A stretch of 64,000 nt of DNA from Deltaproteobacteria bacterium (GCA_019309485.1 JAFDGC010000001.1:13620-77619); one strand, 5' to 3'; numbered from the stretch's first letter, positions 114 to 58,550 are shown. Numbers and translations are program-made. Notes: generated from the sequence alone by a model not told the origin.

Positions 114-186
114 GATCTTCTCCTTCAGAAAATTCCGTTTGAACCGCAAACGGTCATCTTTACAGAGAAGCAATCTTTGTGCCAGC

Positions 187-14607: not shown

Positions 14608-14623
14608 TGGCACGGCTTTTGCT
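14608..14623 (+). promoter_or_regulatory. Sigma-54 promoter candidate upstream of the YHS gene
   Basis: TGGCACGGCTTTTGCT is a near-perfect consensus with exact GG-N10-GC spacing. It lies 46 nt upstream of the ATG, in an AT-rich intergenic region. Confidence 0.7.
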
Positions 14624-46927: not shown

Positions 46928-47293
46928 TCAGGCAAAAATATCCTGGGGCATGTAGGGGTGTGTTCCCTCGATCACCTCCACGCCCGCTTTGGCCTTGATC
47001 TTGTTGAGGATTGTCTCCTTGTAGGGACAATGGTCGGTGATGCACGGACCCACGTGAACTTTGGTGACTTTTTCTTCCAGTGGCTTGTTCCACAGATTCA
47101 CCTGGGCCAGGCGGGTCACGATGGTGGCCCCGGGGCAGTCCCCGCAATTGAGCAGGCCCACCAGTTCCGTGTCCTGGTCCTTGTAGCGCGCAAAAGCCCC
47201 TTCCCTGCGGTTGAATCCGACCATGCACCGGGAGCATCCGATGCACACGTCATCCATGGCCCGTTTGCAACCGACAATCAGGATCTTTTCCAT
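46928..47293 (-). CDS. CGGC-domain protein, paralogue 1
   Basis: Start trimmed to MEKILIVGCKRAMDDVCIGCSRC. It also has NCGDCPG and a C-terminal GTHPY. Confidence 0.75.
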   Translation of the reverse strand: MEKILIVGCKRAMDDVCIGCSRCMVGFNRREGAFARYKDQDTELVGLLNCGDCPGATIVTRLAQVNLWNKPLEEKVTKVHVGPCITDHCPYKETILNKIKAKAGVEVIEGTHPYMPQDIFA

Positions 47294-47466
47294 GGCACCT
47301 CCCTTTTCACGGTATAAAGTATACATGGCTCTGTTGGACCCTCTGCCGACTGGGGCATCTCTACCGGAAAAAGGATGGACGGTCAATATGCGCCCGTGGT
47401 ATTAAATTTAAACGGACCCGAAAGCGGCCGAAGCCTATGGTTTCAGGAACCGGGAATTCAATAAAA

Positions 47467-47608: not shown

Positions 47609-48457
47609 ATGAAATCCGCTCTCGAACCCCTCTACAGGCGGCTCACGGATCGACTGAGGGAAATGAAACGGGTCCTGGTCGCCTTTTCCGGAGGTGTGGA
47701 CAGTACCTTTTTACTCCATGCCGCCGTTGACGCCCTTTCCAAAGAAAATGTGCTGGCGGTAACAGCGGTGTCGGAAATTATGCCCCGGCGTGAAAAAGCG
47801 GCGGCCGTTGAAACGGCCCGGCAGATGGGGGTGAAACACACGCTCGTTCAAAGCACCGAGATGACGGATCCGTGTTTTACGGCAAATCCCCATGACAAGT
47901 GTTACTTTTGCAAAAAAATCCGGTTTGAGGCCCTTTTGGAACTGGCGGCGTCCCGGGGATTTCAATTCGTCCTGGACGGGGAAAACGCCGATGATGCTTC
48001 CGACTATCGGCCGGGGTCCGTTGCCGCCCGGGAGCTGGGGGTGAGAAGCCTCCTCCGGGAAGCCGGGTTGACCAAGGCTCACATCCGCAGCTTGTCCAGG
48101 GCCTTCGGGCTTTCCACCTGGGACAAACCATCCTGCGCCTGCCTGGCCTCCCGCATTCCCTACGATCAGCCCATCACATCGGAAACACTTTTGCAGATCG
48201 ATAAGGGGGAGTCCTTTCTTTTGAGCCTGAATCTTTTCCAACAAGTCCGGGTGCGGCATCACGGGGACACCGCCCGTATCGAGGTGTTGCCCGAAGATCT
48301 TTTAAAGCTGACGGAAAACGGCGTCAGAGAACGGGTGGTGGATTACTTCAAATCCATCGGGTTTTTGTTCGTCGCCCTGGATCTGGAAGGGTATGCCACG
48401 GGGAGGCTCAACCGTGCCGTTTCCAAAGAAGAAAAGGGATCTTCCAATGGACCTTGA
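47609..48457 (+). CDS. larE: LarE-type PP-loop ATP-dependent sulfur transferase
   Basis: VAFSGGVDSTFLL PP-loop, plus CYFC and PSCACLASRIPY Cys motifs. Confidence 0.8.
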   Translation: MKSALEPLYRRLTDRLREMKRVLVAFSGGVDSTFLLHAAVDALSKENVLAVTAVSEIMPRREKAAAVETARQMGVKHTLVQSTEMTDPCFTANPHDKCYFCKKIRFEALLELAASRGFQFVLDGENADDASDYRPGSVAARELGVRSLLREAGLTKAHIRSLSRAFGLSTWDKPSCACLASRIPYDQPITSETLLQIDKGESFLLSLNLFQQVRVRHHGDTARIEVLPEDLLKLTENGVRERVVDYFKSIGFLFVALDLEGYATGRLNRAVSKEEKGSSNGP

Positions 48458-49211
48458 ACATCTCAAAAAGATTCTTGAAAGCCTCCGGAACGGCCGGATC
48501 ACCGTGGAAACCGCCATGGACCGGCTCAAGGGGCTTCCTTTCGAAGACATCGATTTCGCAAAGATAGACTCCCACCGCTCCATCCGCACCGGTTTTTCCG
48601 AGGTGATCTACTGCCCGGGGAAAACCCTTGATCAAATCCGGAAAATCGTGGAACGAAGCGTTCAAAACCGCCACAACATCCTGGCAACCCGGGCAGAAAG
48701 AGAGATTTTCGAAACCATCCGGGAAGTGACAGACGATTGTGAATATCACGAAACGGCCCGCATCGTCGTCATTAACCCCCGCCCGCTTCCGCCCGTGGGG
48801 AATATCGCTGTGGTCTGTGCCGGGACGGCGGATATACCGGTGGGGGAAGAAGCCGCCGTGACCGCCGAAATCCTCGGCAACCGCGTTCGGCGGTTTTACG
48901 ATGTGGGCGTGGCCGGACTCCATCGCCTTTTCAGTGTCCGGGAAGAACTCTTCAAGGCCCGCGTCGCCGTGGTGGTCGCCGGGATGGAAGGAGCGCTGGC
49001 GAGCGTCATCGGCGGCCTGGTCTCTTGCCCGGTCATCGGCGTTCCCACCAGCGTGGGGTACGGCGCTTCCTTCGGCGGCCTTGCGGCGATGTTGACCATG
49101 TTGAACAGCTGTGCCTCGGGTGTCTCCGTCGTCAATATCGACAACGGGTTCGGGGCCGGATATCAGGCGAGCCTCATCAACCGGATGGGTCCGCCGGATC
49201 CGGGGGCATGA
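48447..49211 (+). CDS. larB: LarB-type NaAD carboxylase/hydrolase (AIR-carboxylase-like)
   Basis: Start trimmed to MDLEHLKKIL. DxxRxxRTGFxEVIYCPGKT and VVAGMEGALASV motifs. 11-nt overlap with larE. Confidence 0.8.
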   Translation: MDLEHLKKILESLRNGRITVETAMDRLKGLPFEDIDFAKIDSHRSIRTGFSEVIYCPGKTLDQIRKIVERSVQNRHNILATRAEREIFETIREVTDDCEYHETARIVVINPRPLPPVGNIAVVCAGTADIPVGEEAAVTAEILGNRVRRFYDVGVAGLHRLFSVREELFKARVAVVVAGMEGALASVIGGLVSCPVIGVPTSVGYGASFGGLAAMLTMLNSCASGVSVVNIDNGFGAGYQASLINRMGPPDPGA

Positions 49212-49862: not shown

Positions 49863-50963
49863 ATGAAAAAAAATCTGTCTGATGTAGAACTCGATACTTA
49901 CGCGAGGCAGGTCGTCCTTTCCGACATCGGCTACGACGGCCAGCTGGCGTTGCGGAATGCTTCCGTATGCCTGATCGGACTGGGCGGATTGGGATCCCAA
50001 CTGGCGCCCCGGATGGTGGGCATGGGCATCGGCCGGTTACGGATGGTGGACCGGGACATCGTCTCGCGTTCGGATCTTCACCGGCAAACCCTCTACGATG
50101 TGGATACCGTGGGACGGCCGAAGGTGGAGGTGGCCTTCGAAAGACTCGGCCGACTCAATCCGGACGTGGAATTGACGCCCTTTGCCGCGTCTTTGACTCC
50201 GTCCAATGCAGAGGCGGTCATCGGGGATGCCGGCGTGGTCCTGGACGGCCTCGACACTCCGGAGGCGCGCTATATCGTGAATCGCGTCTGCCACCGCAGG
50301 GGCATCCCTTACGTTTTCGGTGCCGCCATCGAGACCTTCGGGAGCGTTTCCACGCTGATTCCGGGTCAATCCATGTGTCTGGAGTGCTTCATGCCCGGCT
50401 TCCGGAACGAGGATCTGCCTAAATGCGGCGTCGTGGGGGTTCACCCGGCCGTCCTGGGGATCGTGACGGGAATTCAGGTCTCCGAGGCCGTTCGGCTGCT
50501 CCTGGGTAAGGAACCCGCGCTGATTAATAAACTCCTGCAGATCGACCTCCGGGAAATGGCCTTTGAAACCATTGAGCTGAAGGCGCGCAAAAGCTGCACG
50601 GTGTGCGGGTCCGAATCGGCGGAGGGGGAGGACGCCCCGCCGCCCCGGTGGATCGAAGAAACCTGTGCCAGGGACGGCAAACGCAATGTCATCATTTCCC
50701 CCCTGGAACCCATCGAGGTGCCCCTGGAAAAACTTCACCAGGCGCTTCTCAAAAAAAACGATACAATAAAAGCTGCCGGATCCTTCGGAATCACTTTTGA
50801 AAGCAAGGAAGGCATCACCTTATGCATGCTCAACAGCGGCACCCTCATCGCCCAGATTCCGCCGCATCTGGATACGGTGCAAAAAGAGGCGTTGTTGGAG
50901 CGCTACGCAGATCTTTTGGTGGGTGAAATGGGGTTTTCTCCGGACATCATTCCAAAGACGTGA
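49863..50963 (+). CDS. ThiF/MoeB/HesA-family E1-like adenylyltransferase with a ~110-aa C-terminal extension
   Basis: YARQVVL...CLIGLGGLGS Rossmann motif, DxDxV and paired CxxC motifs (CLEC, CTVC). The extra C-terminal domain is unrecognised. Confidence 0.8.
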   Translation: MKKNLSDVELDTYARQVVLSDIGYDGQLALRNASVCLIGLGGLGSQLAPRMVGMGIGRLRMVDRDIVSRSDLHRQTLYDVDTVGRPKVEVAFERLGRLNPDVELTPFAASLTPSNAEAVIGDAGVVLDGLDTPEARYIVNRVCHRRGIPYVFGAAIETFGSVSTLIPGQSMCLECFMPGFRNEDLPKCGVVGVHPAVLGIVTGIQVSEAVRLLLGKEPALINKLLQIDLREMAFETIELKARKSCTVCGSESAEGEDAPPPRWIEETCARDGKRNVIISPLEPIEVPLEKLHQALLKKNDTIKAAGSFGITFESKEGITLCMLNSGTLIAQIPPHLDTVQKEALLERYADLLVGEMGFSPDIIPKT

Positions 50964-52299
50964 CCTGTCGCTGGATTCCCAGCCGGAGTATCTTCCGTCG
51001 CAGGGTGTTCTTGTTGATCCCCAACTCGGCGGCGGTCTTGACCTTCTTCCAGTCATTACGGTCTAAAGCCTGCCGGATGGCGTGGTGTTCTATCTCCTTC
51101 AAAGTCAAGGCCGTGGGCGCGGTCGTTTCCAAGGTGCGGGGCCGCACGCGCTCCGGAAGATGTTCCATGCGGATCAACCCCTCCCGGCACAACACGAAGG
51201 CGTGTTCGAGGGCGTTTTCGAGCTCCCGGACATTGCCGGGCCAGTCGTAAAGCATCAAGGCGGACAAGGCCTCACGGGAGATCCCCGGCACTTGCCTTTG
51301 GTGTAATTGATTGAAATAGCCTATAAAATGATCCACCAGAAGGGGGATGTCCTCCTTTCGGTCCACAAGCGGCGGCAGCGAGAGTCTCACCACGTTGATC
51401 CGGTAATAAAGATCCTCTCGAAATTTTCCGTTTTTCACCTGCTGCTCGAGATCCCGGTGTGTAGCGGCAACAATCCGGGCGTTGGTTTCCAGGGACGTTA
51501 CGGCTCCCAGGGGTTCATACTTCCGTGTCTCGAGTACGCGCAGTAATTTCACCTGAACTGCAGGTGAAATATCCCCGATTTCATCCAGCAGGAGCGTGCC
51601 GTTTTGCGCCTGAGCAAAACGGCCGGGTTTGTCCTTTTTCGCATCCGTAAATGCGCCGCTTTTGTAGCCAAAAAGCTCCGATTCGATCAACGTATCCGGG
51701 AGGGCCCCACAATTGACGGCGACGAACGGCCCTTCCGCCTGGAGGCTGTGGTGGTGTAAGGCGCGAGCGACCAGTTCCTTCCCGGTACCGCTTGGGCCTT
51801 CGATCAACACCGTGGAACGGCTTTGGGCGATCTGGGGAAGTATCGAAAAGATTTCGAGCATCTTTCGGTTTTTACTGACGATGTCTCCAAAGGTGAATTG
51901 TTTGCGCAATGCCTTCTGGAGATGATTCAGGGCAGTCAAGTCCCGGAAGGTCATCACACCGCCGATGATCCGACCGTCGTCATCCTTGAGCACTGCGGCG
52001 GTGACGCTGATGCCGATCTGCTTTTTGTCGGGCCGCACCACATAAACAGATTGATTTGCGGCAACACTCCCTTCCACCATCGCCTGCCTTAGAAAACACC
52101 CCCGCTCGCACACATTACTTCGGAACACCTCAAAGCACGGCTTGCCAATGGCCTCCGTCTTGGAAATGCCCGTAATATTCTCAGCCGCACGATTAAAAGA
52201 TGTCACGCGCCAATCCAGGTCCACGGTATAGACGCCGTCGGCGATGCTGTTGAGAATGGTCTGGTAAAATTGGGGAATGGATTGATCAAGAAACACCAT
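50947..52299 (-). CDS. Sigma-54-dependent transcriptional activator: PAS sensor, AAA+, Fis HTH; no receiver domain
   Basis: PAS region (ILNSIADGVYTVDLDWRVTSFNRAAE), GPSGTGKE, GAFTDA and a C-terminal HTH. Confidence 0.92.
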   Translation of the reverse strand: MVFLDQSIPQFYQTILNSIADGVYTVDLDWRVTSFNRAAENITGISKTEAIGKPCFEVFRSNVCERGCFLRQAMVEGSVAANQSVYVVRPDKKQIGISVTAAVLKDDDGRIIGGVMTFRDLTALNHLQKALRKQFTFGDIVSKNRKMLEIFSILPQIAQSRSTVLIEGPSGTGKELVARALHHHSLQAEGPFVAVNCGALPDTLIESELFGYKSGAFTDAKKDKPGRFAQAQNGTLLLDEIGDISPAVQVKLLRVLETRKYEPLGAVTSLETNARIVAATHRDLEQQVKNGKFREDLYYRINVVRLSLPPLVDRKEDIPLLVDHFIGYFNQLHQRQVPGISREALSALMLYDWPGNVRELENALEHAFVLCREGLIRMEHLPERVRPRTLETTAPTALTLKEIEHHAIRQALDRNDWKKVKTAAELGINKNTLRRKILRLGIQRQVTSLE

Positions 52300-52393
52300 G
52301 ACATCCGTTTCTTTCTTGCGGGTTTGAACCGCGCGCTTCCATAGGAACTATTGCTTTTTTACTCCAATAAAATCCCGTGGTCAATTCATTAGC

Positions 52394-52478
52394 AATACTT
52401 TGTCCCTGCATTACCCAAACAAAGGATACTTTTTGTTCCCTTTTTTATCTCAAAAGGTCACATTTGTTCCCTTTTTTA
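52394..52478 (+). promoter_or_regulatory. Three direct repeats ATACTTT(TT)GT(T)CCCT spaced ~31-34 bp apart; candidate upstream activator sites
   Basis: aatactttgtccctg (about 52394-52408), gatactttttgttccct (52425-52441) and catttgttcccttttttaa (52461-52479). They lie 90-175 bp upstream of the -24 element. Confidence 0.5.
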
Positions 52479-52567
52479 AGGCCAAGAAAAGGTGAGTTTT
52501 GACGCATCGTCGTTTTTCTTTCAATTGTTTCAGTTAGTTGTATACCTTCCGGGCTTCCCTGGCATTC

Positions 52568-52583
52568 AGGCATCAAAATTGCT
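52568..52583 (+). promoter_or_regulatory. Sigma-54 promoter candidate upstream of the MBL-fold gene
   Basis: AGGCATCAAAATTGCT with exact GG-N10-GC spacing. It lies 146 nt upstream of the ATG and is divergent from the EBP gene. Confidence 0.65.
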
Positions 52584-52728
52584 CTACTTGTTTAAGTCCC
52601 CCCTCATCTCGATCACGCAGAACCGTCCGTCGGAGCGCTTCCGGGCAACATCGCCCGATAACATAGATAAAACCCCGTAGGATCTCCATCCAAAGGGAAA
52701 ACGGGAAGATTCAAAAAAAGGAGGTATC

Positions 52729-53835
52729 ATGAAACGAAGGGCTTTTTTAAAATCAATGGCAGCCGGGGGGCTGGCAGCCTCCGTGGCCGGCACTGCCGGC
52801 ATGATGCTACCGAAAGAAGCGGCTGGGGCAAAAAAAATCGACATCGGTGAAATTAAGGGTGTGAAAATCGATGTACTCACAGAAACGAGCTGGTTCGACA
52901 ACGATCAATTCAAAAAAGATATTATGGATTACGGCGGTGCCATGACCAACCAGTACACCATTCCCTGGAAATGGGACAATGCCGGAGGATACGCCACCTT
53001 GATCACGGTCACCACCCTCGATGGCCAGGAACGCAAGTTCATGATGGATTTCGGCTGGAACACGGAGTGGATGGATTACATTTACGAGGAAAAAAGCGAT
53101 GTGGCCTCGCTGATCTCCAAGGATGAAATCGAATTTTGGGTATTGTCCCACTGGCATCTGGACCATTTTTGGGGAGTGGAATCCACGCTGAAACGGAAAC
53201 AGGACATCACGTTATATGCACCCGCCACCTATTATCCCGAAGACATGGCGCTCCTCAAGGAAAAGGCGCATCACAAGGCCAAAGACAAAGAGACCGGAGA
53301 AATGATGCACATCTGTAAAAACGACTACCCCCATACCGGAAAACTGGTCCTTTGCGACGAAAAGGGGGAAAAGGGGGAGGGCATTTATCGTCTGATGCCG
53401 GGCGTGGCCGTTAAATACTATGATGTCCCGATCCTTTTGCGGGTTCGGGGGGAAAATGTGCTGTATTTCAATGTAAAGGACAAGGGAATCGTAACCGTGA
53501 CCGGATGCTGTCATCCCGGAGTTTTATCCCTGTTTTCCTATGCCCGAAAAAACTTCGCCGGTTATAAGCCTTATGGATGTTACGGCGGGCTGCACATCAG
53601 CCTCTTTGAGACGTGGGAACCCAAGTTCGACGACATTATCAAGGGGGTCAAGGCGTTCAAGATTCAAAAGCTCGGCTGCAACCATTGTACGGGTTGGATC
53701 TGGGCGGAAAAAGCCGCTGCCGCTGGAATCCCGGTGGTGAAAGGCACAAATAAATACAAAAGCTACAAAAAAACCTCCACCGTCGCCAAAGCCAGTAACG
53801 TGTTCCTGACCAACGGAGATACCGTTGTGTTTTGA
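52729..53835 (+). CDS. Tat-signal MBL-fold metallo-hydrolase (COG1237-like subgroup)
   Basis: MKRRAFLKSMAAGGLAASVAG twin-arginine signal. VLSHWHLDHFWG, TGCCHPGV, GGLHIS and NHCTG motifs. AAGGAGG RBS. Confidence 0.85.
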   Translation: MKRRAFLKSMAAGGLAASVAGTAGMMLPKEAAGAKKIDIGEIKGVKIDVLTETSWFDNDQFKKDIMDYGGAMTNQYTIPWKWDNAGGYATLITVTTLDGQERKFMMDFGWNTEWMDYIYEEKSDVASLISKDEIEFWVLSHWHLDHFWGVESTLKRKQDITLYAPATYYPEDMALLKEKAHHKAKDKETGEMMHICKNDYPHTGKLVLCDEKGEKGEGIYRLMPGVAVKYYDVPILLRVRGENVLYFNVKDKGIVTVTGCCHPGVLSLFSYARKNFAGYKPYGCYGGLHISLFETWEPKFDDIIKGVKAFKIQKLGCNHCTGWIWAEKAAAAGIPVVKGTNKYKSYKKTSTVAKASNVFLTNGDTVVF

Positions 53836-53870
53836 TGACGCCGGAGGGGAACTATTCGCCGGTTGAAAAG

Positions 53871-53905
53871 GGCGGGAAGAACTGCTTTTTCCTTCCCGCC
53901 TTTTT
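53871..53905 (+). terminator. Intrinsic terminator/attenuator-like hairpin between the MBL gene and the membrane-protein gene
   Basis: GGCGGGAAG-12 nt-CTTCCCGCC followed by TTTTT. Confidence 0.55.
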
Positions 53906-53928
53906 AGACCGTCCGAAGGAGGCGGAAT

Positions 53929-55167
53929 ATGGCTGAAGAAACGTACCCACATAAATTCAATTACTTTTTCGGATTTCTCAACCTGGCAGGGGTTTTCGTC
54001 ATCGTATGGTTTTTATGGTATGTGTTTATGAATCCGAATACCGTCATGAAGCTGTACACCCCCATGTACGGGTTTGCGCTCGTCGTGGTCTTTATCTCGG
54101 GAATTCTTGCCATGAGCAATGTATGCCGGCTCCCGGACATCTACGGCAGCCAGGTCAAAACCGTCAACCCGGTGGTCAAGGGGATCGTTTTGACCGTCGT
54201 CGCTTTTTTTCTGATGATTTTTATCAATTATATTCTTTTTTGGGGGTTTATCGGCAAATTCGGTGTTGCTTATTTCAGTCCTGACTCCATCGTGATATCC
54301 GGGGGTACCGGCGCCGAACCTTATGTGGCGCGTGAAAACGCCTCCACGGCCATCGTCTATTTCTTTGCCGTGTTCCTATGGATGGTTCTTTTCTGGGATT
54401 TGGGATTCGGTCGCTGGCCCTGGCAGGCCAACAGCCTCGGTGTCCGGGTCTGGTCGAAAATGTTTGTCATCCTGTTTTTTGTGATCTTTTTTTACACGAT
54501 TTTATTCCACCCGCATGTCTGTTACCTCTTTTACCCTGCCCAGGACAAAGCAGGGGTAGCCCCGTGGTGGGAAGAAATGGCCGGCACCGGGAGCGCCTTC
54601 TTTAGCCTTGGATTGATTCTTTGCACTTTAGTGTGGATTGTCTTTTCGAGTGTCCTCTGGGAGGGTCGTCCCTGGAATAAGCTGGAAGAAAAAAATGAGC
54701 CCAATTTTTCAAAAGGCTTCGTGGTTTTTGTCACGACACTCACATTGGGGATCATTTTGCTTTTCGTGCTGCTGCAGATTTTTACTTCCATTTGGGGAGA
54801 GCCTTTCGTGGGCGGGCAGTACACTGATGGCCCTGACTGGCGCTATATCCATGGCGCCGAGGTGGCCGGCTTCTTCCTCCTGGCGGCCTTCATATGGAAA
54901 AATTATTTCAACAACTTTCCGAACATAAAAAGCGTTTGGGGGCGCTGCGTAATCCGCAGTATTATTGCAATGGCGTTGGGCATGCTCATCTACTGGTTCT
55001 ATTTTTCTCCCCTGGCCACCTTTTTTTTGGCCAAGGTGGAGGGATTTGCCCAGCCCGGGGATACGCCTCTGGTGTGGACCCTGCTTTTTTTAAGCATCAT
55101 CCTGATCCAGAGCGATTTCTTCGATGGATGGCCCTTGAAACGCGGTAAAAATAAGGAAATCGGATGA
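53929..55167 (+). CDS. Polytopic membrane protein (~10 TM), unknown family
   Basis: 412 aa, Trp/Phe-rich hydrophobic segments, GAAGGAGG RBS. No family recognised. Confidence 0.7.
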   Translation: MAEETYPHKFNYFFGFLNLAGVFVIVWFLWYVFMNPNTVMKLYTPMYGFALVVVFISGILAMSNVCRLPDIYGSQVKTVNPVVKGIVLTVVAFFLMIFINYILFWGFIGKFGVAYFSPDSIVISGGTGAEPYVARENASTAIVYFFAVFLWMVLFWDLGFGRWPWQANSLGVRVWSKMFVILFFVIFFYTILFHPHVCYLFYPAQDKAGVAPWWEEMAGTGSAFFSLGLILCTLVWIVFSSVLWEGRPWNKLEEKNEPNFSKGFVVFVTTLTLGIILLFVLLQIFTSIWGEPFVGGQYTDGPDWRYIHGAEVAGFFLLAAFIWKNYFNNFPNIKSVWGRCVIRSIIAMALGMLIYWFYFSPLATFFLAKVEGFAQPGDTPLVWTLLFLSIILIQSDFFDGWPLKRGKNKEIG

Positions 55168-55436
55168 CACGCAACACCCGTCGGTCTTTTTTAACGCGAT
55201 ATGTCTGGAATCAGGTGGGTCGATGCCTGAAAGGATTCCAGGAAGGCCTCGAAGAAGTCCGTCACCAGTCGGATCTGGATCGCTTTTTTGAATCCTACGA
55301 GTCAAGCTATTCCCTGACCCTGGCGTATCCGGACGAAATTCTCTTGGAGACGGCCCGGCAAAGGGGAATAAAGATAGAAGGCAGGGATAAGATAGACATC
55401 GTAAAAGAGTTGTTTTTAGAGCACGGGGGGTTGTAA
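55164..55436 (+). CDS. Small soluble protein with an N-terminal TRRSFL motif but no hydrophobic h-region
   Basis: 90 aa. ATGA overlap with the upstream gene. No family recognised. Confidence 0.5.
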   Translation: MTRNTRRSFLTRYVWNQVGRCLKGFQEGLEEVRHQSDLDRFFESYESSYSLTLAYPDEILLETARQRGIKIEGRDKIDIVKELFLEHGGL

Positions 55437-55476
55437 GATCGATCTCGAAAGTTTTTTCAGAAGCCAAATCGAAGGG

Positions 55477-56382
55477 TTGTTGATCACCGCCTCCTGGATC
55501 GAAAACCTGAAGACCGAACTGGGATTGACCGGTGTCGCACAGGTTTGGGGGGATCGGCCTTCGTGGTATTTTTGGGTGACCGATGCGCCCGGCGTATTCC
55601 ATCTCGAATTTGCCAATGCCGATACCGTTACCACGGAAACCGGCACCTTCTATACAGCCGATTTCATTATCAAGTGCTATCCCTACCCCCGTCATTCGCT
55701 ATTTAAGACCTTTTCCTCCCTGGAAAAGGCATTGGTTCAAAGCCCTTTCTTCGACAACACGCATTCCCCCGCCTTTGAATACCGGGAACAGCTACCCCCT
55801 GATCTTTTCAATATCGCGACGATGGCGATCACCGTCGATGCCTCCCATCAGATCATCCGTTTCGGTTTTGAAACCTTCGATTTGCTGCGTACCGTTTGTC
55901 TCCACGACACCGTGCGCCGCCACCCCGAGTTAAACCAACGGTATACGTTGAAAGCCGGTACGGTGGACCGCAATGTGCCGGCAATGCATATTGGATATCC
56001 ATTTTTCGGGCGGATGCTGTGTTTGCATGCGTATGCGGCCGGAAAGACGCCGGCGCGGATTCAATTGGCCCGCCGTCGGGGATTTGAATTCGGTTTGGAT
56101 TCAGAGACGGTGCGCTTCATTCCTTCAAATATAATTCAACACTATAGATACGGTGTTTGGTTTCATCCGCTTAGCAAATTCCAAACAGGGGATCCGGATC
56201 AATTACCGGCGACGACCTCCAATGAGGCGGAAAAGATTCTCTACGACCGGGCTTTTCCTTGTGGGCACTTTCATCCGTCTCAGGCGGAAAAAGAGCTTCC
56301 GTTACCTCTGGATGACCGTTGGTGGGCATTGGCGCATGCCCGTTACGCATCCCATCTGACGTCGTGTTGCGGTTGCAATTGA
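55477..56382 (+). CDS. Hypothetical protein (301 aa) ending in SCCGCN
   Basis: Long ORF with a TTG start in the track. No TM or signal peptide. No family recognised. Confidence 0.55.
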   Translation: MLITASWIENLKTELGLTGVAQVWGDRPSWYFWVTDAPGVFHLEFANADTVTTETGTFYTADFIIKCYPYPRHSLFKTFSSLEKALVQSPFFDNTHSPAFEYREQLPPDLFNIATMAITVDASHQIIRFGFETFDLLRTVCLHDTVRRHPELNQRYTLKAGTVDRNVPAMHIGYPFFGRMLCLHAYAAGKTPARIQLARRRGFEFGLDSETVRFIPSNIIQHYRYGVWFHPLSKFQTGDPDQLPATTSNEAEKILYDRAFPCGHFHPSQAEKELPLPLDDRWWALAHARYASHLTSCCGCN

Positions 56383-56723
56383 GAGTCGCGGTCCCGATAT
56401 ACCGGAAACGCATTTCACCGGTTCTCGATTTCTGCGAACGATTGCTGGTCGTCGACCTGGTTGAAAATTCCGAAGTCGAGCGCAAAGAGGTTTTCCTGGA
56501 TGAGATGTCCTTATCCGACCGGTTGACCCTGTTGCAACGCTTGGAAGTGACGATGGTGATTTGCGGCGGTATCAGTGATACATTGTACCATATGCTGCAA
56601 AACTGCGGAATCGAATCCATCAGCGGGATCACCGGTGATGTGGAGGATGTGATTACCGCGTTTTGTCGCAATCAGCTCAATGATTCCAAATTTATGATGC
56701 CTGGATGCAACTTCCGGGAGTGA
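56379..56723 (+). CDS. NifX/NifB-like dinitrogenase FeMo-cofactor-binding-domain family protein
   Basis: (M)RVAVPIYRKRISPVLDFCERLLVVDL...VICGGISDTLYHMLQNCGIE fits the family. A TTG start overlapping the upstream TGA is assumed; 56364 and 56373 are alternatives. Confidence 0.6.
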   Translation: MRVAVPIYRKRISPVLDFCERLLVVDLVENSEVERKEVFLDEMSLSDRLTLLQRLEVTMVICGGISDTLYHMLQNCGIESISGITGDVEDVITAFCRNQLNDSKFMMPGCNFRE

Positions 56724-56833
56724 CCGGAACGCTTCCCTAACCCCCGCCTTTTAAGGCGGGGTGAGGGAAGCTCTCAAAAAACAGGTAATTTCCTTACCGG
56801 GGACCCCGCCCTTCAGGGCGGGAAGGCTTCACA
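56720..56833 (-). repeat. Two-hairpin composite repeat, full copy C (inverted orientation)
   Basis: It is the reverse complement of copies A and B along the full length. The terminal gTGAcc contains the stop of the NifX-like gene. The CGGC gene RBS follows within about 5 nt. Confidence 0.9.
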
Positions 56834-56847
56834 AGAAAGGAGGTCCC

Positions 56848-57192
56848 ATGGAGAAAGTGATGATTGTCGGATGCGGCGCTTATATGGACGGCGGCTATGG
56901 ATGTCCGGGAGAGTGGCGATGCCTGAAGGCCGCGGCACTCGGGGAAGGAAATTACGAAAACCCTTCCCAGGCCATTTCCTTTGTAAAATGCGAGTGCCCG
57001 GGACGGGCATTGGTCTCAAACATCGGGATGGCCATGAAGCTATCCGAAATCAAACCGGATAAAATTTATCTCAGTTCCTGCCTTGTAAATGCCAAACCAG
57101 GATGCCCCTACGTCACACCGGACGAAATGATGGAAGCCATCCAAGCCAAGTTCAAAATCCCGATGATCAAAGGGACCCACGACTACCACTGA
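56848..57192 (+). CDS. CGGC-domain protein, paralogue 2
   Basis: MEKVMIVGCGAYMDGGYGCPGEWRC, KCECPG and a C-terminal GTHDYH. AAGGAGG RBS. Confidence 0.75.
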   Translation: MEKVMIVGCGAYMDGGYGCPGEWRCLKAAALGEGNYENPSQAISFVKCECPGRALVSNIGMAMKLSEIKPDKIYLSSCLVNAKPGCPYVTPDEMMEAIQAKFKIPMIKGTHDYH

Positions 57193-57372: not shown

Positions 57373-57722
57373 ATGAAGGACTGTAAGAGTGACTTCCGAA
57401 CCGTCCGGAATCCTGTTTTTTCGGTTCCATGTGCATTCTGGTCGATCCCGTCCACCCCGTGTTTCGGAATTCGGATCGGGGGCATCATGGGAAACCGCCC
57501 ATGAGGAAAACGTCTCTCCGATGGATCCTCCCGGGGCCCATCGCCTGAACCCTTTTCAAAGGCATGGGCACAGGAGCCTTGCGATGATCGGCGATTTGTG
57601 CCGCATTCTTTCTTGAGGATCCCAACACCCCGCCCTTGACCCATCCGGGCTTTTTGTTTAAAAACCCTGAAGAATCATCCACCACTTCTTTGGAACTTTG
57701 GAACACGAACAGGAATCGGGCC

Positions 57723-58550
57723 ATGATTAAAAAAATCGTGTCGGGGGGACAAACAGGTGCGGACCGGGCGGCCCTGGATGTGGCCCTCAAGCTGGATATT
57801 CCCCACGGGGGATGGATCCCCAAGGGACGCATGGCGGAAGACGGCCCCATTGATCAAAAATATCAACTGGAAGAGATGCAGACGGCCAACTACCAGGACC
57901 GCACCGAGCAGAATGTCATCGATTCGGACGGCACCCTGATTTTATCACACGGGAAGCTCACGGGGGGATCGGCCTATACCCGGGATATGGCCTTGCAGCA
58001 CGAGCGGCCGTGGCTCCATATCGACCTGAATAAAATAACCAAATTCGACGCCGTCCGGAAAATCAGCGCATGGATCGTGGAAAACCATGTTGAAATCCTC
58101 AACGTGGCCGGACCCCGGGCCAGCAGGGATCCGTCCATTTATGACGATGTCTGTGAAATCCTCGAGACTGCCTATATGCTGACCCTTGGGACGGACAAAC
58201 CGCTGCGCATGCCGGAAATACCGCTAGTCGAAAAGACGATCCGCCACCGGAAAAACACCCTCCCGAAGACCGTGGATGAAGCGGTGGATCGGTTGTCCGC
58301 GATCCTGTCCCTCAGGGACAAAAACACCATCGCCCATTTGGAAGAGGACAAGATGCCCCTTCTCAGAGCCGCCCTGGGAAACGCCGTTAAAAACCGGCTG
58401 GACGCATGGTGCACCGAACCGGCCCTGCTGAAATCCTGCATGTATCATTCGGGCAAAAAAAATCTCGATCGGGAGGAAGCCACGCAGATCATCCTCGAGG
58501 CGTTGTGGAAAACTCTGAAAAAAAACCATGTGCTGCGGGTCGTCAAGTGA
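57723..58550 (+). CDS. SLOG-superfamily YpsA / 'molybdenum-cofactor-carrier'-like protein with a C-terminal helical extension
   Basis: Start trimmed to MIKKIVSGGQTGADRAALDVA. The protein has about 150 extra C-terminal residues. Confidence 0.7.
   Translation: MIKKIVSGGQTGADRAALDVALKLDIPHGGWIPKGRMAEDGPIDQKYQLEEMQTANYQDRTEQNVIDSDGTLILSHGKLTGGSAYTRDMALQHERPWLHIDLNKITKFDAVRKISAWIVENHVEILNVAGPRASRDPSIYDDVCEILETAYMLTLGTDKPLRMPEIPLVEKTIRHRKNTLPKTVDEAVDRLSAILSLRDKNTIAHLEEDKMPLLRAALGNAVKNRLDAWCTEPALLKSCMYHSGKKNLDREEATQIILEALWKTLKKNHVLRVVK

Follow-up and report, generated by a model that had tools for sequence, protein, structure and literature searches.

In Bacillus subtilis, PhoD is a metallo-hydrolase that is exported by the twin-arginine translocation (Tat) pathway, encoded with the genes for its own Tat translocase (TatAd/TatCd), and induced by one condition. 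COG0523 proteins (G3E GTPases) form metallochaperone-client pairs, examples of which involve the nitrile hydratase activator, ZigA, ZNG1, and CobW. Small cytoplasmic proofreading chaperones coordinate cofactor loading with Tat export in the NapD-NapA, TorD-TorA, and NarJ-NarG pairs, and NarG retains a vestigial twin-arginine motif on a protein that is not exported. The EfeUOB and FtrABCD iron uptake systems have a Tat-exported periplasmic metalloprotein and a membrane permease, together with periplasmic redox helpers and cytoplasmic-side partners. Here, we compare these systems with a conserved gene module in a 64,000-nt stretch of DNA from a Deltaproteobacteria bacterium (GCA_019309485.1, JAFDGC010000001.1:13620-77619). 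This whole stretch, from a JGI metagenome contig, is referred to as the window, and all coordinates are positions within it. The protein families shared by the module and the described systems are only the metallo-beta-lactamase (MBL) superfamily and, in distant versions of the module, the COG0523 domain. Four genes of the module are central to what follows:

52729-53835, plus strand: core gene 1, a Tat-signal MBL-fold metallo-hydrolase of the COG1237-type group, 368 aa (the MBL)
53929-55167, plus strand: core gene 2, a Trp/Phe-rich membrane protein with 10 transmembrane (TM) segments, 412 aa (the 10-TM protein)
55164-55436, plus strand: core gene 3, a 90-aa cytoplasmic protein with an N-terminal TRRSFL, whose ATG overlaps the 10-TM stop codon as ATGA
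55477-56382, plus strand: core gene 4, a 301-aa cytoplasmic protein that ends in SCCGCN

The module resembles PhoD-TatAdCd in that a Phascolarctobacterium version has tatA-tatA-tatC directly after it, whereas no tat genes are adjacent in the window. However, PhoD does not have the MBL fold, and its system has no dedicated 10-TM partner, COG0523-linked factor, or small protein with an RR motif. As in the COG0523 pairs, a cobW/CobW_C protein is encoded directly after the presumed client, the MBL, in 57 loci, and its N-terminal domain is homologous to the 301-aa protein. The window 301-aa protein differs in having a Cys/His-rich end and no GTPase domain, and the N-terminal domain has no Pfam or PDB relative. 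We know of no COG0523 client that is a Tat-exported MBL. The 90-aa protein is like the Tat chaperones in being small, cytoplasmic, and encoded beside a Tat substrate, but it carries an RR motif itself, is not a known RR binder, and has no similarity to the solved chaperones. EfeUOB and FtrABCD have no protein family in common with the module, and they differ in Fur regulation and in a permease with REXXE motifs and a known fold.

A preliminary description of the window had proposed a self-contained unit of six downstream genes, which included NifX-like and CGGC-domain genes after the four listed above. All of its open reading frames are present, as are the start/stop overlaps that it reported (ATGA at 55164 and TTG/TGA at 56379). 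We searched one genome per GTDB species with the 10-TM protein and found matches in 112 species. The window proteins were mapped onto the loci of the best 80 of these 112 species, with the eligible loci as the denominator for each gene and gene order judged where the contig was long enough. All 80 loci were from Desulfobacterota (sulfate-reducer-type Deltaproteobacteria), with Desulfosarcina alkanivorans PL12, D. widdelii PP31, Desulfomonile, Desulfarculaceae, Syntrophales, and Desulfatiglandales among the taxa represented. The order MBL, 10-TM, 90-aa, 301-aa, on a single strand, was constant across them. Gene frequencies, with identity to the window protein except where another reference is named, were as follows:

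MBL: 71/71 eligible loci, 69-93% identity
10-TM protein: query gene, 49-77% identity
90-aa protein: 77/78 eligible loci, 38-65% identity
301-aa protein: 75/75 eligible loci, 24-45% identity
Small cytochrome c, upstream of the MBL: 43/65 eligible loci, 42-100% identity to the copy in locus L005
NifX-like protein, downstream: 33/69 eligible loci, 34-48% identity
Divergent PAS-domain sigma-54 enhancer-binding protein (EBP): 27/56 eligible loci, 56-75% identity

This test of neighborhood conservation was strongly positive, because the MBL, 90-aa, and 301-aa genes accompany the 10-TM gene at almost every eligible locus. No further recurrent neighbor genes were found among the clustered related loci. 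Judged by this comparison, the unit is real and is conserved well beyond chance. Its core is the four genes for the MBL, 10-TM, 90-aa, and 301-aa proteins, and the NifX-like, cytochrome c, and EBP genes are accessories. Therefore, the proposal of a self-contained module was sound, but the CGGC gene probably lies outside it, the NifX-like and EBP genes are optional, and a cytochrome c gene that the window does not have belongs to most versions. At least 112 species-level genomes of sulfate-reducing and syntrophic Deltaproteobacteria carry the unit, as do several hundred further contigs, of which many come from metagenomes of the human gut. Versions with a different gene order are found in Negativicutes and in metagenomes of gut and environmental origin. 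We found no description of the four-gene unit in the literature, and for three of the four core proteins there is no counterpart in Pfam, NCBIfam, or the PDB. The view that no component belongs to a characterized pathway was upheld by Pfam, NCBIfam, and PDB sequence searches and by PDB fold searches. A tblastn search of a plasmid collection with the MBL gave no match. Public gene calls also place a 33-aa open reading frame without a TM segment between the MBL and 10-TM genes (53835-53936, plus strand; MTPEGNYSPVEKGGKNCFFLPAFLDRPKEAEYG).

The MBL matched Pfam Lactamase_B with 23.7 bits (cutoff, 22.7) and has an HWHLDH motif at residues 141 to 146. Its N terminus begins with the Tat motif MKRRAFLK, followed by a hydrophobic stretch (MKRRAFLKSMAAGGLAASVAGTAG). 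The twin-arginine motif was found in 75/75 Desulfobacterota MBLs and in at least 70/75 other MBL relatives, and the remaining relatives had RR motifs behind alternative starts. Residues H141, H143, D145, H146, H202, C260, C261, H262, H289, D301, D302, and H319 are invariant across phyla. When an MBL profile from three arrangements of the module was compared with the PDB, the only matches were 7dck (1.7e-17), 2p4z (6.6e-15), and 3h3e, all of them functionally uncharacterized. These COG1237-type structures share the core fold and the HxHxDH, GC.H, GG.H, and HC(T/S)G motifs with the MBL. However, they are only 248 to 284 aa long, align only from about residue 35 to 44 of their chains, and, unlike the MBL, have no Tat signal. 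By these matches, the MBL is a member of the COG1237-type group, as had been proposed. It also carries the proposed twin-arginine signal, and its export is predicted. The solved relatives are functionally uncharacterized, so they are uninformative on the substrate. Identity of 69 to 93% across orders would normally mark a physiologically central enzyme.

The 10-TM protein had been described as a Trp-rich protein with about 10 TM segments that could not be assigned to a family, and this is still the case. It has 20 Trp in 412 aa (4.9%), and its AlphaFold2 model has 10 long helices (pLDDT 79.7, pTM 0.85). It had no Pfam, NCBIfam, or PDB sequence match, and a scan of ten distant relatives also found no Pfam or NCBIfam domain. 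The best Foldseek match of the model in the PDB had an E value of 0.41 and a TM score below 0.3. A HMMER search of 1.84 billion representatives recovered only 102 relatives. Hundreds of relatives at 60 to 76% identity are nearly all nameless, but some have been labelled "AAT family amino acid transporter" by JGI. We reject this APC label because there was no profile match and no APC transporter in the Foldseek top 50, yet it is now spreading through databases. We also rejected a heme-handling (WWD) or NrfD-like identity, for which there was no profile match and no conserved pair of heme-ligand histidines. H308 is the only nearly invariant histidine.

The distribution of positive charge in the 10-TM protein predicts that both termini are cytoplasmic, which would make its longest conserved stretches periplasmic; the predicted periplasmic loops include residues 112-141, 193-219, 290-311, and 359-378. 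These stretches are acidic and comprise KLYTPMYGF, AYFSP..GG.GAEP..ARENAS, FHPHVCYLFYPAQ..PWWE, GGQYTDGPD.R.IH..E, and AQPGDTP. On the cytoplasmic side, an aromatic-x-x-W-P-aromatic motif follows every second helix. Individual hairpins were related to each other by hhalign (hairpins 1 and 5, 92%; 2 and 4, 76%; 2 and 3, 61%), and this suggests that the protein is a fivefold repeat of a TM hairpin. The only residues that all distant relatives share are W30, G109, and P248, whereas nearly all have P164, W213, W214, W244, R305, H308, and R343. Therefore, an HPH.C motif is not universal in the family.

In the distant-relative loci, the 10-TM gene adjoins the MBL gene in 78 of 87, and most of the remaining nine are either on short contigs or lone paralogues. 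The 10-TM protein is probably an importer or membrane partner of the MBL. Lone paralogues are found in loci L088, L089, and L175-L178. In Desulfosporosinus youngiae, one without an MBL is upstream of thiolase, CoA-transferase, 3HCDH, ECH, and ACAD genes and a PAS sigma-54 EBP gene. In a Desulfobaccales genome, another has an acyl-CoA synthetase on one side and a PAS-EBP, a carboxyltransferase, a CoA-transferase, and a short-chain fatty acid transporter on the other. A third, in Thermodesulforhabdus, is between cobT and an acyl-CoA synthetase gene, and the context of one in Desulfofundulus was uninformative. The relationships among these sequences place the 10-TM protein in a wider, unnamed family with lone members in acyl-CoA and short-chain-acid operons. 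Their acyl-CoA, beta-oxidation, and short-chain fatty acid contexts suggest that the family transports small organic acids. It is possible that this is a new family of carboxylate transporters, and it may be a new transporter class.

The 90-aa protein has no hydrophobic segment (maximum hydropathy over 19 residues, 0.07). Its TRRSFL motif had been called vestigial, but this does not fit the family. Across all arrangements, one residue alone is invariant, and this is the second Arg of an N-terminal [KR]-R-x-[FL] motif. The protein had no Pfam match, and a profile of 13 relatives found no PDB chain below an E value of 0.04. A known Tat proofreading chaperone (TorD/DmsD or NapD) was also considered and rejected, because no chaperone was among the profile matches.

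The 301-aa protein ends in CCGCN, as had been noted. Its C-terminal part is Cys/His-rich (FPCGHFH ... CCGCN) and forms a flexible tail, with the last seven residues disordered in the AlphaFold2 model (pLDDT 84). C67, C298, and C300 are invariant among close relatives, some of which add a His-rich tail after the CGC. We found no Pfam, NCBIfam, or PDB sequence match and no PDB fold match (Foldseek, E value below 0.05), and homologues were detected at low identity only. However, the 301-aa family aligned with the N-terminal 250 to 300 residues of fusion proteins that also have cobW and CobW_C domains (hhalign 99.2%, E value 2e-19, 231 columns). These are the 565- to 700-aa proteins, with a GCICC motif, that are encoded directly after the MBL elsewhere. 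They resemble generic COG0523 GTPases (YjiA, ZigA, and CobW), below any equivalog cutoff. The 301-aa protein itself cannot be counted among the COG0523/G3E GTPases, since it has no cobW domain and shares only an N-terminal domain with the non-GTPase part of the fusions. In the standalone form, the Cys/His-rich C terminus replaces the GTPase. These relationships make the 301-aa protein a partner or substitute of COG0523 GTPases rather than a member, and the fusion ties it to G3E-type metal delivery.

None of the 90-aa, 301-aa, NifX-like, and CGGC proteins has a signal peptide or TM segment. The preliminary description had suggested periplasmic cofactor handling as one possible role of the module. 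Such a role for the Cys-rich proteins is unlikely because export signals are absent and the 301-aa protein has its homologue in the N-terminal domain of cytoplasmic COG0523 fusions. Instead, these features suggest that the Tat substrate is matured, or that metal is received, in the cytoplasm.

We searched for distant versions with a profile of distant 10-TM relatives and then read their gene contexts, and a metagenome scan gave at least 385 confirmed loci. In Phascolarctobacterium, the order is a divergent Rrf2 regulator, an 88-aa protein, a 282-aa protein, a 47-aa protein, the Tat-signal MBL, the 10-TM protein, TatA, TatA, TatC, a hybrid kinase, and ExbB-ExbD-TonB. The 88-aa protein, which begins MKRRDFF, is a homologue of the 90-aa protein (E value 9e-14), and the 282-aa protein, with the internal motif CACCGGGG, is a homologue of the 301-aa protein (E value 6e-18). 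Compared with the window proteins, the MBL is 42% identical and the 10-TM protein is 28% identical. Two further contigs had the same order with a small TM peptide of 37 to 38 aa. Peptides of this kind, with 37 to 47 aa, a single TM segment, and the pattern ..WPG..VG.V.F..T, are encoded just before the MBL in this second order (L090, 6732-6875; L092, 6763-6876; L094, 6748-6864), and no counterpart is evident in the window. A third order is common in human gut assemblies and consists of a GntR regulator and a small RR-motif protein (neither always present), the 10-TM protein, the MBL, and the 565- to 700-aa protein, often followed by ExbB-ExbD-TonB. Overall, ExbB-ExbD-TonB genes were beside the module in 6 to 7 of 28 non-redundant distant groups.

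Upstream of the core genes in the window are the following:

50947-52299, minus strand: PAS-AAA+-HTH sigma-54 EBP, 450 aa (Pfam)
52399-52478, plus strand: upstream activator sites with the core TTTGTTCCC, copies at 52432 and 52463, and a degenerate copy at 52399
52568-52583, plus strand: sigma-54-type -24/-12 promoter, aGGCAt-N5-TTGCT, 146 nt before the MBL start codon

The EBP has PAS/PAS_9, Sigma54_activat (222 bits), AAA_lid_14, and HTH_8 (40 bits) domains, which agrees with its description as a receiver-less PAS-AAA+ activator divergent from the module; Pfam found no receiver domain. Its sigma-54 contact loop is GAFTDA, one deviation from the GAFTGA-type consensus, and this was the same in 36/36 orthologues. 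The promoter had been called canonical. It is present and conserved, but it matches 9/11 specified positions, with GG-N10-GC intact, and is therefore absent from the output of a search allowing one mismatch or fewer. Of the three phased direct repeats that had been reported, two are exact 16-nt copies of TTTGTTCCCTTTTTTA spaced 31 nt apart (52432 and 52463), and the third is only degenerate (TTTGTCCCT at 52399).

We compared the promoter regions of 33 relatives with a divergent EBP, counting elements that matched at least 9/11 positions in the correct orientation upstream of the first gene. Such an element was present in 20/33. Shuffled sequences gave 0.84, with a maximum of 4, and the opposite strand gave 2. 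The TTTGTTCCC 9-mer, with one mismatch or fewer, was in the EBP-module intergenic regions of 22/33 relatives, often as pairs 31 to 34 nt apart. In at least 11 relatives its last copy is 102 to 109 nt upstream of the -24 element, and in the window this distance is 105 nt. About half of the loci have kept the proposed sigma-54/EBP architecture, and the promoter and activator sites recur across relatives. This regulatory reading is well supported by the comparison, and RpoN dependence is predicted. At six matches with one mismatch or fewer, versus 1.64 expected, the window is rich in sigma-54 promoter sequences, so sigma-54 is apparently widely used in the host organism. Two elsewhere in the window are perfect TGGCAC-N5-TTGCT matches (169-184, minus strand; 14608-14623, plus strand).

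The regulator differs among versions of the module. A GntR/FCD regulator, which also fits a small-molecule inducer, takes the place of the EBP in 14/28 non-redundant distant groups. The overall count is 45 loci, five of them from Desulfobacterota. Other versions have Rrf2, PadR, or MalT/BTAD-type regulators. In none of the loci did we see a regulator of the Fur, Zur, or NikR type. We searched the leader sequences of eight related loci and of the window for cobalamin, NiCo, Mn, or other riboswitches and found none.

Two genes follow the core in the window:

56379-56723, plus strand: NifX/NifB-C-like (Nitro_FeMo-Co) protein, 114 aa, accessory; its TTG start overlaps the preceding TGA stop
56848-57192, plus strand: CGGC-domain protein, 114 aa from the ATG (Pfam CGGC, 74.4 bits)

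The NifX-like protein had been assigned a NifX/NifB-like cofactor-binding domain. Pfam agrees, but with 26.9 bits against a cutoff of 26.3 the match is marginal, and a relative in L004 falls below the cutoff (25.0 bits). We found no nif genes among the called genes or recurrent open reading frame clusters of the related loci examined. The CGGC protein is a clear family member, and the real start of its gene is probably the ATG at 56848. However, the gene is probably a neighbor and not part of the module, because a CGGC gene comes after the module at just 5 of the clustered related loci and, in the window, a 124-nt spacer separates the CGGC and NifX-like genes. This spacer contains two GC-rich hairpins (56741-56821; CCCCGCCTTTTAAGGCGGGG and CCCCGCCCTTCAGGGCGGG) with no T-run after them, which could be repetitive extragenic palindromic (REP)-like elements or an attenuator. 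The window has a second CGGC-domain gene (46928-47386, minus strand; 96.5 bits), so the family is simply common in the host genome. The cytochrome c of related loci is a protein of about 110 aa with a signal peptide and a single-heme CxxCH motif, encoded directly upstream of the MBL. Its gene is absent from the window, from about one-third of Desulfobacterota loci, and from all non-Desulfobacterota versions.

The reading that we favor, with confidence somewhat short of even, is that the module specifies a metalloenzyme that is inducible and acts in the periplasm, together with cytoplasmic factors for its maturation and an importer of its product. The MBL would be a binuclear-metal hydrolase that folds and is loaded with metal in the cytoplasm before Tat export. 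Its universal Tat signals and invariant metal ligands, and the dedicated tat genes in one lineage, argue for this. The 301-aa protein, like its COG0523 fusion counterparts elsewhere, would supply or guard the metal before export, and the 90-aa protein, via its twin-arginine-like N terminus, might help to hold or target the MBL precursor. In the periplasm, the MBL would dock on the conserved acidic outer loops of the 10-TM protein and hydrolyze its substrate. The 10-TM protein, a probable carboxylate-type secondary transporter, would then import the hydrolysis product. Transcription would be from the sigma-54 promoter, activated by the divergent PAS-EBP at the TTTGTTCCC sites about 105 nt upstream, in response to a small ligand.

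More generally, it is plausible, without being probable, that the unit is an exported metalloenzyme with dedicated maturation and transport partners, largely from undescribed families, under a substrate-sensing regulator. Whether it works in a way not yet described is more doubtful. A bolder version, which is somewhat unlikely, is a trans-envelope system of three new families: a membrane protein of new fold, whose five tandem TM hairpins may make a pseudo-fivefold pore; a bare-RR adaptor for Tat targeting or gating; and a COG0523 client-adaptor domain. It would couple cytoplasmic metal insertion, Tat export, and import of substrate or metal in strict anaerobes that range from sulfate reducers of marine habitats to Negativicutes of the human gut. 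The fusion of the 301-aa-type domain with COG0523 provides a concrete handle on metal supply to Tat-exported enzymes, a question that is open for most exported metalloenzymes. The MBL would also add a defined client to a chaperone family that has few known ones.

Several observations weigh against an enzyme with a product importer. The module is not accompanied by catabolic genes for any product. A purely hydrolytic scheme leaves the small cytochrome c of 43/65 Desulfobacterota loci without a role. The case for transport by the 10-TM protein is one of context, and its fold matches no known transporter. Finally, metal uptake would account just as well for ExbB-ExbD-TonB in about one-quarter of distant groups, for the link to COG0523, and for the Cys/His tails. 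Transition-metal acquisition is the main alternative, although we consider it unlikely. The MBL would capture a metal or free it from a chelate, and the 10-TM protein would be a cation permease, pseudo-pentameric and with an outer mouth that is acidic. The 301-aa protein or COG0523 fusion would receive the metal for distribution, with the NifX-like and CGGC proteins as further acceptors. The GCICC-containing GTPase fusions directly after the MBL would suit this, as would the C-terminal CGC tail of the 301-aa protein with its His-rich extensions in some relatives, the conserved acidic periplasmic loops and five hairpin repeats of the 10-TM protein, the ExbB-ExbD-TonB genes of Phascolarctobacterium and the other groups, an IscR-like Rrf2 regulator in one version, and occasional hypFDE or larE-larB(-larC) neighbors. 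However, the regulators are PAS-EBP or GntR/FCD types rather than Fur, Zur, or NikR, the leaders that we searched have no metal riboswitch, and no gene for a TonB-dependent receptor is adjacent. A binding protein needs neither fully invariant MBL catalytic residues nor Tat export, and the lone 10-TM paralogues are in organic-acid operons, not metal operons.

The cytochrome c raises a different alternative, a periplasmic redox complex. Here the MBL would have a redox-active di-metal center like those of flavodiiron proteins and exchange electrons with the cytochrome while anchored on the 10-TM protein, and the 301-aa, 90-aa, and NifX-like proteins would assemble the center. The position of a single-heme protein with a signal peptide directly upstream of the MBL is consistent with this, and the high MBL identity across orders is typical of core energy enzymes. 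Tat export, maturation-type accessory genes, and the Fer4 and CCG proteins that are downstream in a few loci could also be accommodated. We nevertheless regard it as quite improbable, because many versions of the module, including that in the window, have no cytochrome c gene, the core has no iron-sulfur subunit, and the 10-TM protein has no conserved heme-ligand histidine pairs. A single operon for periplasmic cofactor handling that spans all six downstream genes, with the NifX-like and CGGC genes among them, is very improbable. The six genes share a strand, the NifX-like start overlaps the preceding stop, and a NifX-like gene follows the core in 33/69 loci. However, the CGGC gene is rare beside the module and is behind two hairpins here, its family is common in the genome, and none of the small Cys-rich proteins has an export signal. 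We retain the inducible metalloenzyme with a product importer as the working interpretation.

Three themes suggested by neighboring genes were considered and dropped. A lactate or 2-hydroxy-acid theme (an LldR-like GntR and LUD, CCG/Fer4, and larBCE neighbors) was too sparse to claim, with a LUD gene at 1 locus, CCG/Fer4 genes at 5 to 6 loci (two of which are the same contig), and larC at 2. A corrinoid link was limited to single cases, cobT upstream of one lone paralogue and corrinoid methyltransferase genes in L004, with no riboswitch. A selenium link was suggested by a tRNA-Sec in L163, but its neighbors are housekeeping genes.

Some other neighbors are also of note. In the window, the nickel-pincer cofactor genes for LarE-like (47609-48457) and LarB/AIRC (48393-49211) proteins, both on the plus strand, are 3.5 to 5 kb upstream of the module, with no LarC or LarA gene near them. 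In two distant Desulfobacterota loci, L079 (1-2890) and L083, LarE-LarB-LarC and then an aldehyde:ferredoxin oxidoreductase are encoded directly upstream of the module. In L003 and L007, two Desulfobacterales contigs from one sample, the module directly follows the hydrogenase maturation genes hypF-hypD-hypE and has a MalT/BTAD-type regulator in place of the EBP. The window also encodes a ThiF/MoeB-type adenylyltransferase with a C-terminal extension of about 110 aa (49863-50963, plus strand), and its gene and the EBP gene are convergent, with 17 nt shared at their 3' ends. Immediately after the locus comes a gene for a circularly permuted YpsA (SLOG) protein with a C-terminal DUF6794 (57636-58550, plus strand).

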